Made by a program: the position numbers and the translations under genes | NCBI GenBank assembly: GCA_044229845.1 | Contig: JBGASG010000006.1 | Location: 192,001-256,000, forward strand | Direction of reading: 5' to 3' | Origin: Candidatus Obscuribacteraceae bacterium | Lineage (GTDB): Bacteria > Cyanobacteriota > Vampirovibrionia > Obscuribacterales > Obscuribacteraceae | Length of the DNA stretch: 64,000 nucleotides | Notes under the pieces: model-generated | Database searches by the model: none | Told to the model about the DNA's origin: nothing | Seen by the model: only the letters and a program-made list of their open reading frames with translations | Shown here: piece after piece, positions 8,640 to 56,841 of the stretch | Position numbering within the stretch: position 1 is the first letter of the stretch | Layout: every line of letters starts with the position of its first letter

Positions 8640-9800
8640 TCAAACCAGCTTGATCAGCGGTGGCGAAACATAATTCCGGATGTCGTCCTTTGATATCGCA
8701 TCCGCTGCGACGCACATCGCAAGGAAAGCTCCCTGCGGCCACCGCACCAGATCTGCCAGATGGGAAAACACACAGACATACTGTTGCAAATACTTTCTGC
8801 TCACCCCTTGAAACACATCGATGATGAACGCAGCGACTTGTTGAACTTTCTCGCTCAAGACATCCGACGAGGTTCCGCGGACGGCATCCGCAGCGCGGAC
8901 CGAACCGGTATCAGCGCCGTCGACGTCACGTTCCCCGGTTCGATTTGCCAACACGAAGCGCTCTCCCGGAAGTCTCAACGCAAGTCCATTCAACTCAAGC
9001 ATCACCAAACTCGACGTCAACTCTCCGAATTCCAAACCAGTCTGCTCTCGCAGCAAGTCAATGAAGATCGGCTGCTCACCCAAATGTTGAAGCACTTGGT
9101 GCTCGACCTCGTCGAGGTGCGCTCCGTCAACGCCCGCATCTCGAGTAGTTGCCTCCCCCTGAGCGGTCCCCTCATCTCGAGTAGTTGCCTCCCTTTGAGC
9201 GGTCACCTCATCTCGAGTGGTTGCCTCCCCTTGAGCGGTCCCCTCATCCCGAGTAGTCGCTTCTCTCCAATCAACATTGTGTTCCTCAGAAGCAGGACTC
9301 TGGCGGGCCTCCGTTTCTCGGCTGCGTCGAGTGACGACTTTCATCCACCTGGATGAAGGGACTTCATCCCCAGCGTCAGTTTCGGAAACCGAATTCGTGA
9401 GCACCATCGCGAGCTTCAGAAACATCGTCCATGCAGTCGAATAGGCGACTCCCGTAACCTTAGAGAATCTGCTCGGATTAACCTCAATTCGATGGTCAAT
9501 CAGCCAAACGGCAAACAGCCATTCGCGCACGAGCCTGATGTTCTCAAAGAACGTGCCCGAAGTCAGGTGCATCTTCTCATTGCATTCGGAGCATTGAACG
9601 GTTCGATCATTCACGCGAATCCAATTGCTGTTAGGACATCCCTTTCTGCAAGTGCGATTGGAGCTCGATGTCGCGCAAAGCGCATCTACACAATCAGCAT
9701 CGGTCGGAAACTCAGCATTGAATTGTTCCATTTCATGGAACAGCGGATCTGTGTCATTTTCAGAGGGTCGTCGATCTGGGTTCTTAGCTTGATTTTTCAT
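8640..9800 (-). CDS. IS1595-transposase-derived protein with DprA-like winged helix, apparently lacking the DDE core
   Basis: N-terminal FPT..C, CRKGC/CSEC Zn ribbon, GTFF, YSTAW; C-terminal FQGVSRKYLQQY; central wHTH ...SLVMLELNGLALRLPGERF; GGAGG RBS. Confidence 0.7.
   Translation of the reverse strand: MKNQAKNPDRRPSENDTDPLFHEMEQFNAEFPTDADCVDALCATSSSNRTCRKGCPNSNWIRVNDRTVQCSECNEKMHLTSGTFFENIRLVREWLFAVWLIDHRIEVNPSRFSKVTGVAYSTAWTMFLKLAMVLTNSVSETDAGDEVPSSRWMKVVTRRSRETEARQSPASEEHNVDWREATTRDEGTAQGEATTRDEVTAQREATTRDEGTAQGEATTRDAGVDGAHLDEVEHQVLQHLGEQPIFIDLLREQTGLEFGELTSSLVMLELNGLALRLPGERFVLANRTGERDVDGADTGSVRAADAVRGTSSDVLSEKVQQVAAFIIDVFQGVSRKYLQQYVCVFSHLADLVRWPQGAFLAMCVAADAISKDDIRNYVSPPLIKLV
9137..9262. 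repeat. 36-bp in-frame tandem repeat, about 3.5 copies
   Basis: Encodes EATTRDE(G/V)TAQ(G/R) inside the IS1595-derived gene. Confidence 0.9.
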
Positions 9801-9887
9801 GGCAGAAACCTCCATTACGATCAACGTCGCTCGCACCCAAAAAGTTCAATTCGCCAGATAAAACTGACAACCCCCCCTCTCAAGCTG

Positions 9888-10000
9888 AACTGAAGCGATA
9901 TCGCTTTAGCTTCTCTGAGCTGAGGCGATATCGCTTTAGTTTTGGTGAGTTGGAGCGATATCGCTTCAACCTGGATGAGCTGGAGCGATATCGCTTTAGT
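9888..10000. repeat. GCGATATCGC palindromic repeat array, 4 units, 30-bp period
   Basis: Cores at 9895, 9925, 9955, 9985. Confidence 0.95.
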
Positions 10001-10719: not shown

Positions 10720-12552
10720 ATGCTGGTGGTTGAGACACTAACTTTAGCAGCAACGGTTGGCGCTTTGATAGGCGCCGGATGTTACTGCTTTCGCCGTTGT
10801 CCTCCCGACAGAGTTCTGGTAGTGCGAAGTCGCACGAAGGCTGGAGCAGCCGGTGCCGCAAAAAATACCGGCAGTTTCAGAGTTACGCGTGGAGAGATCT
10901 GGATTAACCCGCTCACCGAGGCGGTGCAGGAAGTCAATCTGTCCCCGCTGGAGATCTACGTCGCGGTATCGCTGCCCTCGTCTGCCATCAATGTAGAACG
11001 CCTCTATATTCATTTGAAGGTAGTTACGGCGCCCAGCCCGGACGACGACTCGCTCGCTCGGGCGGCGGGGCACATAGGCGGCCTGGATGTACACCGTGCA
11101 TCTCGCAAGTTAGAGGAGTTGATTGCGGCGAAAAATCCGGAACTGCCACTGTCACTGGTGCCGCAATCGGCTGTGGATCTACAGAGTTTGAGTTTGCGCG
11201 GACGTCCGGAATGGAACGAATGGCTGCTGTCGCTCCTCAAACCCTACGGGATGGAATTGAAATCCTACAGTCTGCTGGAAGTATCTCGACGCACTGAGTT
11301 GCAACCGACTCCGCGGTCCCAGGAACCGGACGTTTCGCGCGCCTGCCGCCTTTTGGAATTCGACCCCGTATGCGAGGAGGTGCAGGTCGAGATTGCAGCC
11401 AGCCAGACTCAATTGGGTGCAGTCGGTATCACGTGGCTTTTGATGTTCAACGTGGAACCACAATTCGACCTATACCGGGTGGCGTGTGAAAACTATCTGG
11501 ACAAGCCGGCGCCGGAGGTTAACTCTCATTTGAGCGGCATCGTGTCCCAGGCAATGCATCGCGCACTCTCGACCTGCAATGGCTACACGATGATCGATCA
11601 GCTCTGCGAATCATATAAGAAGTATGGTGGTGACTCGGGCAAAAGCTCCGGTAAAGAGTTGGCTATCTATATGTTGAACGCTGTTTCCGACGCGGTCAGC
11701 ACCTGGCGCGGCAAATTGATGATGATGCGAGCCTGGTTCACGTCAGCGAATACAGCTCAGAAGTTCTTCACGACTCTTGTGCAATCGTTAGAGGTTGAAC
11801 TCAGTCGGTCTGGTTTGAAGTTCGGTGGGTTGCTTTTCAAAGATGTCGACCTGCAGACATCGACAATTCAATTGCCCACAAAGTGGAACTACACATCCTC
11901 GTTTGTGCCGACCGACGTCATTCAGTTTTCGGGACGAACTCCAATCGTCTTCGAGGGGCGACCACTGACTGCCGTAATCTGGGCGCGCGTGGAAATGCCC
12001 AGGCTGAAAGCCATCGGCGTTGCATCGGGCGGTGCTGCATCGGGCGGTGCTGCATCGGGCGGTGCTGCATCGGACGGTGCTGCATCGGACGGTGCTGCAT
12101 CGGACGGCGTTGCATTGGAGGGTGCCAGCGTTTCGGAGACGACGGTATCTGGTGCCCTTTCCCATCAACTGACGAAGGCACTGGCGACTCCCAAGGTCCA
12201 GAAGTTGGTGATCGCCGCCGAGCGACTTTGGGCAGAACTGAAACGCGACATGGACGAGCTACGCGGCGTCGACGGCACACTGGAAGATCCGGTCACCAGA
12301 CTGATCATCGAACGCGCGGCGCTGCGTTTAGTTCTGCCGGCAGCCAAAGTGGTGCTGGCACTACTGGATGCCTACGCCGAGGTGCGCCGCGAGTTTATCA
12401 AAAACTGCTCGCGAGCAGTGAACGAAACCGGCGGCGTCGGTGAGAACTTCGCTCTGCGCGACTTCGACATTGTCGACCACAAAGGCAATACGATACTTAC
12501 AGCGCCAGAGCAGTCCGTTCAGGAAACAGCTGCAATAGCCCTTCCTCGTTAG
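10720..12552 (+). CDS. Divergent SPFH/flotillin-like membrane protein
   Basis: N-terminal TM followed by FRRCPPDRVLVV, resembling flotillin N-termini; remainder divergent. Confidence 0.55.
   Translation: MLVVETLTLAATVGALIGAGCYCFRRCPPDRVLVVRSRTKAGAAGAAKNTGSFRVTRGEIWINPLTEAVQEVNLSPLEIYVAVSLPSSAINVERLYIHLKVVTAPSPDDDSLARAAGHIGGLDVHRASRKLEELIAAKNPELPLSLVPQSAVDLQSLSLRGRPEWNEWLLSLLKPYGMELKSYSLLEVSRRTELQPTPRSQEPDVSRACRLLEFDPVCEEVQVEIAASQTQLGAVGITWLLMFNVEPQFDLYRVACENYLDKPAPEVNSHLSGIVSQAMHRALSTCNGYTMIDQLCESYKKYGGDSGKSSGKELAIYMLNAVSDAVSTWRGKLMMMRAWFTSANTAQKFFTTLVQSLEVELSRSGLKFGGLLFKDVDLQTSTIQLPTKWNYTSSFVPTDVIQFSGRTPIVFEGRPLTAVIWARVEMPRLKAIGVASGGAASGGAASGGAASDGAASDGAASDGVALEGASVSETTVSGALSHQLTKALATPKVQKLVIAAERLWAELKRDMDELRGVDGTLEDPVTRLIIERAALRLVLPAAKVVLALLDAYAEVRREFIKNCSRAVNETGGVGENFALRDFDIVDHKGNTILTAPEQSVQETAAIALPR
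12016..12120. repeat. 15-bp in-frame tandem repeat, 7 units
   Basis: GGTGCTGCATCGG(G/A)C encoding GAASG/GAASD. Confidence 0.9.
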
Positions 12553-18658: not shown

Positions 18659-18720
18659 CAACCGATATCGGTTGAGGTGGTCAAGCGAGCCCGAGCTAAA
18701 GCGATATCGCTTTAACTCGG
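18659..18720. repeat. Two GATATC-centred palindromic repeat units
   Basis: CAACCGATATCGGTTG (18659-18674) and CCGAGCTAAAGCGATATCGCTTTAACTCGG (18691-18720). Confidence 0.9.
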
Positions 18721-22974: not shown

Positions 22975-23006
22975 CCGGAGCTAAAGCGATATCGCTTTAG
23001 ATTCGG
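22975..23006. repeat. Single GCGATATCGC palindromic repeat unit
   Basis: CCGGAGCTAAAGCGATATCGCTTTAGATTCGG between divergent genes. Confidence 0.9.
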
Positions 23007-34749: not shown

Positions 34750-34767
34750 TCAAGCACTCTACCTGAA

Positions 34768-35080
34768 TTGAAGCGATATCGCTTTAGCTCCCCAGCCTCG
34801 CCTGAACTGAAGCGATATCGCTTTAGCTCCCCAGCCTCGCCTGAACTGAAGCGATATCGTTTTAGCTCCCCAGCCTCGCCTGAACTGAAGCGATATCGCT
34901 TTAGCTCCCTAGCCTCCGCTCAACTGAAGCGATATCGCTTTAGGTTTGACGGCGTGGAGAAGCGGCAGCCAGGGTTTTACCCGGGTAAAACTCCGATCGT
35001 GCCGAGTTTCACCCGGGTGAAACGAGTGGCTGGGTTCCGGTTTCTTGGCAAGCCACCCGCTCAACCGATATCGCTTTAGC
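34768..35080. repeat. GCGATATCGC repeat array, 5 units at 39-bp period plus one isolated unit
   Basis: Cores at 34773, 34812, 34851, 34890, 34929 and 35065. Confidence 0.95.
34974..35023. promoter_or_regulatory. Pair of 18-bp perfect palindromes
   Basis: GTTTTACCCGGGTAAAAC (34974-34991) and GTTTCACCCGGGTGAAAC (35006-35023), 32 bp apart; function unknown. Confidence 0.6.
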
Positions 35081-43702: not shown

Positions 43703-43813
43703 AGCCCAAGCGATATCGGTTGAACCTCGCGGACTCAAGCGATATCGCTTGGGTTTCTCCGACCTGAAGCGATATCGGCTCAATTTCCAGAGCCAAAGCG
43801 ATATCGCTTGGGT
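43703..43813. repeat. GCGATATCG(C/G) repeat array, 4 units, 29-30-bp period
   Basis: Cores at 43710, 43739, 43769, 43798; downstream of tRNA-Leu. Confidence 0.95.
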
Positions 43814-43873
43814 TCTGGCGGACGGCGCAGAAGCCCAGCGGGCTTGGTTTATTCGTACTTGGGGAGAAAAGAT

Positions 43874-56760: not shown

Positions 56761-56841
56761 AGCCCAAGCGATATCGCTTCAGTTCAAAGAGCCCAAGCGA
56801 TATCGCTTCAGTTCAAAGAGCCCAAGCGATATCGCTTTAAC
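56761..56841. repeat. GCGATATCGC repeat array, 3 units, 29-bp period
   Basis: AGCCCAAGCGATATCGCTTCAGTTCAAAG units; cores at 56768, 56797, 56826. Confidence 0.95.

Follow-up and report, generated by a model that had tools for sequence, protein, structure and literature searches.

What might a protein do that keeps both ends of an insertion sequence (IS) transposase, carries a winged helix of the DprA type in place of the catalytic core, and is encoded beside an array of palindromes? This question is raised by P0001, a 386 amino acid protein encoded at 8640-9800 on the reverse strand of a 64,000 nt stretch of Candidatus Obscuribacteraceae DNA (termed the window, always meaning the whole stretch). 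An earlier note, made from the letters of the window, had read P0001 as a domesticated IS1595 transposase that acts as a DNA-binding protein, and the array as its candidate partner. Our analysis shows that P0001 is a catalytically dead IS1595 derivative in which a linker of repeats and a DprA winged helix stand in place of the catalytic sheet, and that its gene is domesticated, being fixed, single-copy per paralog and under purifying selection. To judge from sequence, the protein likely binds the surrounding AAGCGATATCGCTT palindromes through its retained zinc-ribbon and helix-turn-helix (HTH) head. We give nearly even weight to the further reading that P0001 serves as a site-specific tether for the branch-migration helicase ComM at these palindromes.

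Profile comparison places both ends of P0001 in the IS1595 lineage. An exhaustive phmmer search over 1.84 billion representatives recovered 1144 relatives at E<=1e-3 (152 of them at E<=1e-30), most of full length, and 93 of these relatives were aligned to represent the family. When the family profile was compared by hhalign with a profile of 35 true IS1595 transposases, the two matched with a probability of 99.9 and an E value of 4e-32 over 285 columns, the match spanning P0001 residues 22-140 and 311-377. The head compared with one IS1595 transposase gave 99.0%. The IS1595/ISXO2 pattern noticed earlier at the N-terminus therefore marks real homology, which is present at both ends of the protein. 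The single Pfam match in P0001 is to PF17782, with neither the IS1595 zinc ribbon (PF12760) nor DDE_Tnp_IS1595 (PF12762), and NCBIfam gives a weak IS1595 match (E 0.002, residues 92-142). Across the 93 aligned members, PF17782 is found in all, PF12760 in 12 and PF12762, weakly, in one.

The N-terminal head (residues 22-140; 9381-9737, reverse strand), as delimited by hhalign, cysteine conservation and structural models, comprises a Cys4 zinc ribbon and a helical HTH region. Its cysteines C51, C55, C70 and C73 are invariant across the 93 members, and by sequence comparison it is homologous to the end-binding head of IS1595 transposases. The C-terminal helical region (residues 311-386; 8643-8870, reverse strand) is, by hhalign, the homolog of the helices that end the IS1595 DDE domain. 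It includes GVSRKYLQQY, a motif that had been singled out from the letters and that is real, lying inside the hhalign match at 8778-8807, about 6 nt from the position first given for it.

Between these ends the catalytic core is lost. An AlphaFold model of a true IS1595 transposase (predicted local distance difference test, pLDDT, 87) has strands at residues 137-145, 161-170, 173-182, 203-206 and 221-223 between head and tail. The AlphaFold model of P0001 (pLDDT 85.5; predicted template modelling score 0.70) keeps head and tail as in the transposase, with helices and ribbon in the same order and helices 312-376 corresponding to helices 238-294 of the transposase. The five-stranded sheet is absent from this model, in which the middle is reduced to one strand of four residues and a long helix, then the disordered repeat linker and the winged helix. 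Furthermore, the first catalytic Asp of the IS aligns to P148, in a column that holds P, S, A, H or R in the family. The earlier failure to find catalytic motifs in the letters was thus borne out by the unmatched PF12762, by this residue and by the missing sheet. A PF12762 search of the whole source genome, which is 88% complete, gave no match, and a search of the gene flanks found no terminal inverted repeats, as the note had also observed. The structural check that it proposed, for an intact RNase H fold with terminal repeats, revealed neither. Fold searches (Foldseek on PDB; VIA-align wide) matched the winged helix only and are uninformative on the shell formed by head and tail.

What remains of the middle has features of its own. 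Residues 147-173 (9282-9362, reverse strand) hold the remnant of catalytic strand 1 and the motif (K/R)RSRETPARxHPxAEQ, which in the 93-member alignment is the best conserved of the family (R159, T163, P169 and E172 in 92/93 members each, S160 in 90/93). The 36-bp tandem repeat reported earlier was recovered by Tandem Repeats Finder in 3.5 copies at 9133-9257 (reverse strand); it encodes a low-confidence acidic linker, residues 206-219 of which have pLDDT below 50 in the AlphaFold model of P0001. P0001 therefore shares with IS1595 elements of the ISXO2-like type (PF12760 plus PF12762) the Cys4 ribbon, the helical head, the C-terminal helices and the order of these elements. It differs from them in lacking the catalytic sheet, the Asp residues, terminal repeats and target duplications, in having diverged, fixed and syntenic copies, and in the insertion of the DprA winged helix.

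A true IS1595 element of 1007 bp, active-looking and encoding both PF12760 and PF12762, is present in a complete genome of another genus (G048) as three copies of about 99% identity (L052, L094 and L095). Its terminal repeats measure 23 bp and its target duplications 8 bp. The left end and terminal repeat contain GATAT..GGTTGA, which is loosely like a half-site of the palindromes described below, a likeness that is only suggestive.

The inserted domain is a genuine DprA-type winged helix, as had been proposed from the letters. PF17782 matches residues 227-279 with an E value of 6e-12 (45.9 bits, against a cut-off of 22.9), and with the wing strands of the model the domain extends over residues 227-284, at 8949-9122 on the reverse strand (8950-9116 in the earlier reading). 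It superimposes on DprA 3maj with a root mean square deviation of 0.9 A over 52 residues (0.9-1.3 A over two fold searches) and is 40% identical to the C-terminus of the host genome's own DprA. Residues L265, L268, E269 and G279 are kept in 85-91 of the 93 members, and the third helix is hydrophobic and acidic (LVMLEL), conserved like the protein-binding face of DprA. In the accessible portion of a 2025 study of DprA and ComM, the DprA winged helix recruits ComM via the C-terminal Mg-chelatase domain and shows no binding of duplex DNA (PMC12012524). The residues mapped there, in Vibrio, are L350, E353 and L354 of DprA and L455 and R497 of ComM (PMC12012524).

We modelled residues 218-292 of P0001 in complex with the ComM of the source genome. 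The model scored 0.72 (0.71, 0.72 and 0.72 in individual runs), compared with 0.00 for the best control; the score mark used is reached by 116 of 157 solved complexes and by 2 of 215 mismatched pairs. At least 90% of contacts are shared between the runs, and pLDDT is 76 for the partner. In the modelled interface, ComM residues 463-510 contact winged-helix residues 258-270, the same regions as in the DprA-ComM mutagenesis described in the available part of that report (PMC12012524). This modelling supports the predicted docking of the winged helix on ComM. P0001 thus resembles DprA in having a winged helix of the same Pfam family with the LxxLEL helix kept, placed by the model on the Mg-chelatase domain of ComM as in the accessible text on DprA (PMC12012524). 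In contrast to DprA, it lacks the Rossmann DNA_processg_A domain, Pfam finding the winged helix only, so that neither single-stranded DNA binding nor RecA loading is expected, and its hook is joined to a head predicted to bind double-stranded DNA sequence-specifically.

The gene shows the marks of domestication rather than of a passing IS copy. Its frame is open from the ATG at 9800 to the stop codon at 8640-8642 (open reading frame, ORF, 8643-9800) and GGAGG lies at 9809-9813, which agrees with the earlier description of an intact ORF with a good ribosome-binding site. The source genome (G000; contigs C3, C4, C6, C8, C10, C14 and C18 are referred to below) carries five paralogs, of which this copy is on C3, in addition to a true dprA on C1. 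The paralogs are 28-50% identical and hence not identical copies. A sister genome of the same genus (G054) is collinear with the whole 64 kb at 90-97% identity, and the P0001 locus is syntenic there. Compared with its G054 ortholog, the gene has a ratio of non-synonymous to synonymous substitution rates (dN/dS) of 0.21, with 22 synonymous and 16 non-synonymous changes in 373 codons, and insertions and deletions between the two are confined to the repeat linker. The claim of a domesticated transposase thus stands on the lost core, the diverged paralogs, the synteny and the dN/dS value, the last being a check that had been suggested with it. Of 57 genomes sampled from the same GTDB family, 50 contain strong matches (E<=1e-50), at 1-22 per genome; the other seven, and all three genomes of a sister family, have weak matches only.

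Candidate sites for the head lie among the palindromes near the gene. The four-unit array reported about 90 bp upstream was confirmed by Tandem Repeats Finder at 9884-9999 (period 30, 3.9 copies); its GCGATATCGC cores lie at 9895-9904, 9925-9934, 9955-9964 and 9985-9994, the unit closest to the gene is centred 100 nt from the ATG, and G054 retains all four units with a single substitution. The source genome has 54 occurrences of GCGATATCGC, where about 5.8 would be expected. Among 1419 GATATC sites, 95 extend to palindromes of at least 14 bp, and 80 of these 95 belong to four families of the form AA-NN-GATATC-NN-TT (GC, 30; CC, 26; GT, 15; TT, 9), the other 15 being singletons. Conserved bases widen the site to about 26 bp.

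Each palindrome family is centred on a member of the gene family. GC-type sites occupy C3 at 141-283 kb around the P0001 gene, CC-type sites C6 at 178-283 kb around the C6 paralog, and TT-type sites C10 beside its paralog. GT-type sites surround the paralogs on C18 and on C8, and hybrid sites occur on C8 as well; the fifth paralog (C8) lies in a mixed GT/GC field. With arrays counted once, 11/17 GC loci lie no more than 100 kb from the cognate paralog, as do 15/20 CC, 6/9 TT and 4/13 GT loci; the nine remaining GT loci are on C8, eight within 105 kb and one at 129 kb of the C8 paralog. The regional clustering of the families has binomial P values from 8e-4 to 2e-20. Fields are about 35 to 220 kb wide, within about 100 kb of the gene on each side, and the TT field, on the 49-kb C10, spans only 35 kb. 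Moreover, a palindrome lies 80-123 nt upstream of the start in all five paralogs, as against 86 of 4504 (1.9%) roughly called genes. The earlier note had allowed that the adjacency of gene and array could be chance and had asked for a count of paralogs and their co-location with sites. The upstream site in five of five paralogs, the four variants each centred on a paralog, and the recurrence of this arrangement in other genera described below argue for partnership.

The palindrome sites are intergenic. Gene pairs in convergent, tandem or divergent orientation were not preferred beyond the effect of intergenic length, which argues that the palindromes are not simply terminators, and we rejected that reading. 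Similarly, the G+C content of the field (55.0%, versus 54.1% and 55.9% in the rest of the contig) is ordinary and gives no sign of a foreign island, an origin that we also set aside. When symmetry beyond the 14-mer was examined for hairpins, the extra symmetry came mostly from conserved bases (CT..AG; A..T at positions 9, 10 and 12). Sites with at least three further complementary positions number 32, whereas shuffled sets average 18 and reach 30 at most, but repeated array units inflate this count and we treat the hairpin signal as weak. The comM gene itself (C6:216173-217684) falls within the CC field belonging to the C6 paralog, and the CC palindrome at C6:218560 is about 0.9 kb downstream of it, which may be coincidence.

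Six further palindrome loci lie in the window: a GC-type array of 2.6 units at 1829-1907; adjacent CC-type and GC-type palindromes at 18660-18712; a single GC-type palindrome at 22984-22997; a 39-bp-period array of 4.7 units together with one hybrid site (35063) at 34762-35076; an array of four GC/GG-type units at 43708-43814; and a 29-bp-period array of 2.7 units at 56761-56837. All seven loci are found at the same positions in G054, without gains or losses. The pair at 18660-18712 and the arrays at 34762-35076 and 43708-43814 are conserved there, and the single palindrome carries one substitution in the G054 copy. Unit number alone varies, in the manner of slippage: the arrays at 1829-1907 and 56761-56837 each have two units in G054 versus three in the window. 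The stability of these positions argues against recent mobility. At 18660-18712, a palindrome of the CC type, that of the C6 paralog, stands 25 nt from one of the GC type inside the GC field.

Palindromes accompany the family in other genera. In two complete genomes, G016 and G048, a palindrome or tandem array with a CGATATCG or GTTAAC core stands within 350 nt upstream of 13 of 13 homologs, as read by eye; a strict test for perfect arms flagged five. In G048, all seven matches of one 16-mer lie within 52 kb of the paralog with the matching flank, compared with no matches for the control. In G016, CCGATATCGG occurs 69 times versus three times for its control, and at least 14 occurrences, among 50 sites listed, lie within 41 kb of one paralog. 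For the best match from each of 40 further genomes, an 18-bp palindrome with at most one mismatch was found upstream in 30/40, versus 5/40 for the downstream control. Two sparser cases, which speak against a universal field, are G044, with three sites, two of them on the paralog's contig, and G023, with seven sites, five of them on the paralog's contig. Homologs in other genera (L054-L066) have perfect upstream palindromes of 44-64 nt with locus-specific arms and centres of CGATATCG, GTTAAC or GAATTC; this length is unusual for stable duplex DNA.

A quick tree, for which the careful search was unfinished, joins four of the source genome's paralogs in one clade, which suggests that the site dinucleotides diverged after a lineage-specific duplication. 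In genus g10, orthologs across genomes keep the same flank and paralogs within one genome differ. This tree-based pattern in the flanks is only suggestive, because related sequences share labels.

A third component of the locus is its promoter. Neither this nor the ComM link was anticipated in the earlier note. Promoters read by extracytoplasmic function (ECF) sigma factors have 'AAC' at -35 and 'CGT' at -10, and an ECF-sigma-like box, TTGAAC-N17-CGT, lies at 9824-9849 on the reverse strand, 24 nt upstream of the P0001 ATG. The box core has 33 occurrences in the genome, and about 30 genes make up the regulon defined by the box (TTGAACTTTTT-N12-CGT), which joins genes of transformation (comM, comEC, yraN) with those of replication and repair. 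Among the genes that follow it are an ECF sigma gene (C4:10450-11076), comM, comEC, yraN (UPF0102), priA, dnaB (with an intein), dnaE and sbcC, and also XRE/PLD proteins, DUF1800, DUF6088, LTXXQ proteins and tnpB. The tnpB so preceded (C14:120018-121293) encodes OrfB_IS605 and a Cas12f-like TNB domain. Across genera, the box stands upstream of comM in 24/28, and it stands upstream of the family gene in 35/40 genomes. A box is found within 200 nt at only six of 79 palindrome loci, and five of these are the paralogs themselves, which indicates that the field sites are not promoter elements. The distance from palindrome to box ranges from 5 to 83 nt in 37 cases, without fixed helical phasing. The single non-paralog locus with a relaxed box within 200 nt is at C3:179254-179378, outside the window.

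If P0001 is a tether for ComM, it could work as follows. The head, an end-reader in transposases, would bind the palindrome as a dimer, with the NN dinucleotide setting the specificity of each paralog. P0001 would be made together with ComM when the DNA-transaction or competence regulon is on, and its winged helix would dock on the C-terminal domain of ComM as that of DprA does. The palindrome field would in this way gather ComM or serve as its loading place, altering branch migration there, and integration of incoming DNA around the gene might be promoted, blocked or directed. More tentative, and to our minds doubtful, is the extension to the whole family in Obscuribacterales-type bacteria as a set of transposase-derived 'address tags', each of which would have a private palindrome over up to about 220 kb, hook ComM there and bias local recombination.

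Several observations weigh against the tether. Five natural members in G048 (L047-L051, about 280 amino acids) have no winged helix, which implies that part of the family's role is independent of ComM; each sits behind a tandem array of 6-11 asymmetric CGATATCG-like units. Fields are not universal: in G013, 8 of 11 sites are found no more than 150 nt upstream of a paralog, and one 16-mer is common to several paralogs. The very stability of site positions between close relatives (7/7) leaves the origin of the fields unexplained. P0001 deviates from the near-invariant motif of its family at two residues, E164 and S168. The complex score may reflect mere likeness to the DprA winged helix, and ComM is also encoded in genomes without the family (G007, G009, G012 and G040). 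Finally, no box was found within 250 nt upstream of the source genome's dprA, and the box regulon is wider than DNA uptake (dnaE, dnaB, priA, DUF1800 and LTXXQ genes), so that 'competence' is only one reading of the regulon.

Some of these points would be accommodated if P0001 were a transposase-derived transcription factor or nucleoid-domain protein that regulates itself and its neighbours or folds its own domain, with the winged helix serving another contact and ComM uninvolved. We regard this as unlikely. It would account for the members without a winged helix and for G013, where the eight sites are promoter-proximal only, and the one universal feature of the family is a site 26-83 nt ahead of the promoter box of the gene itself, as autoregulation predicts. 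The clustered fields also resemble the layouts of ParB/parS, RacA/ram and MatP/matS, systems of chromosome-domain marking in which the palindromic sites of one protein are clustered in one domain. However, the P0001 family has no homology to those proteins (neither Pfam nor NCBIfam matches a ParB-like N-terminal domain or HTH in P0001), and it has many paralogs with private gene-centred fields and a predicted helicase-docking domain each. The variable spacing between site and promoter and the scarcity of field sites near a box also speak against a regulator, as do the LVMLEL helix, conserved like a protein-binding face, and the ComM complex model, which passes its controls.

The same winged-helix and co-regulation evidence that favours the tether would also suit a decoy, in which a DprA-like hook competes with DprA for ComM in competence and damps transformation, either generally or around the field, so shielding a once-selfish gene from deletion by incoming DNA. 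Mobile elements are known to interfere with transformation: islands that disrupt comM are described in the accessible part of one report (PMC11441513), and a conflict model of mobile elements versus transformation in that of another (PMC4774983). A pure decoy, however, requires neither sequence-specific sites nor paralog-specific fields, and 1-22 matches per genome kept in 50 of 57 genomes indicate retention at the level of the host. We consider this explanation distinctly improbable.

Less probable still, with little chance of being correct, is that the palindromes are mobile repeats, akin to repetitive extragenic palindromes (REPs) or miniature inverted-repeat transposable elements, spread locally by the protein with a nuclease supplied in trans, as an IS1595 counterpart of the REP-associated tyrosine transposases (RAYTs). 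Each paralog has its own repeat variant, tandem arrays vary in unit number, gene-centred fields look like the outcome of local hopping, and the terminal repeat of the G048 element bears the loose likeness to a half-site noted above. As in RAYT/REP systems, a domesticated transposase adjoins its cognate palindromic repeat and several such pairs exist per genome. RAYTs, however, are HUH enzymes with their catalytic residues intact, and REPs number in the hundreds and are scattered over the whole genome. In contrast, P0001 lacks catalytic residues and fold, has no Pfam match to Y1_Tnp or another HUH family (its homology being to IS1595), and has 9-30 perfect copies per variant, concentrated in the field. 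In addition, no target-site duplications were seen at palindromes, and the loci of the window hold their positions in G054 at 90-97% identity, with slippage of unit number only. An ordinary or decaying IS1595 copy beside an abundant repeat by chance, for which the weak NCBIfam match and the dense repeats of the region might be cited, can be dismissed given the missing DDE domain and terminal repeats, the intact frame under purifying selection, the architecture shared by 93/93 relatives, and the sites upstream of 5/5 paralogs versus 1.9% of genes.

Should the tether exist, transformation in this lineage would be non-uniform along the chromosome, locally programmed by sequence-specific adaptors for the branch-migration helicase. 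This would bear on how ComM is targeted and on how genes and former mobile elements fight or exploit transformation, and it would define a new recombination-steering class, possibly self-protecting, assembled out of a defunct insertion sequence and a captured part of DprA. The natural paralogs, whose DNA specificity would differ at two base pairs, would also offer a system for the re-use and re-tuning of a transposase end-binding domain. A search of full-text literature returned no description of the P0001 architecture or of palindrome fields, and PF17782 was named there only in the DprA-ComM study. A dead IS1595 shell fused to a host domain and paralog-specific palindrome fields both appear to be undescribed in the searchable literature, and these two would remain apparently new even if the ComM part fails.

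The surroundings of the P0001 gene are unremarkable: it is flanked by genes of ordinary metabolism, encoding a Cys/Met pyridoxal phosphate enzyme and a class II aldolase. Also in the window, a 610 amino acid ORF without a Pfam family lies at 10720-12552 on the forward strand, and within it a 15-bp tandem repeat of seven copies (12021-12125) encodes GGAAS/DGAAS units.

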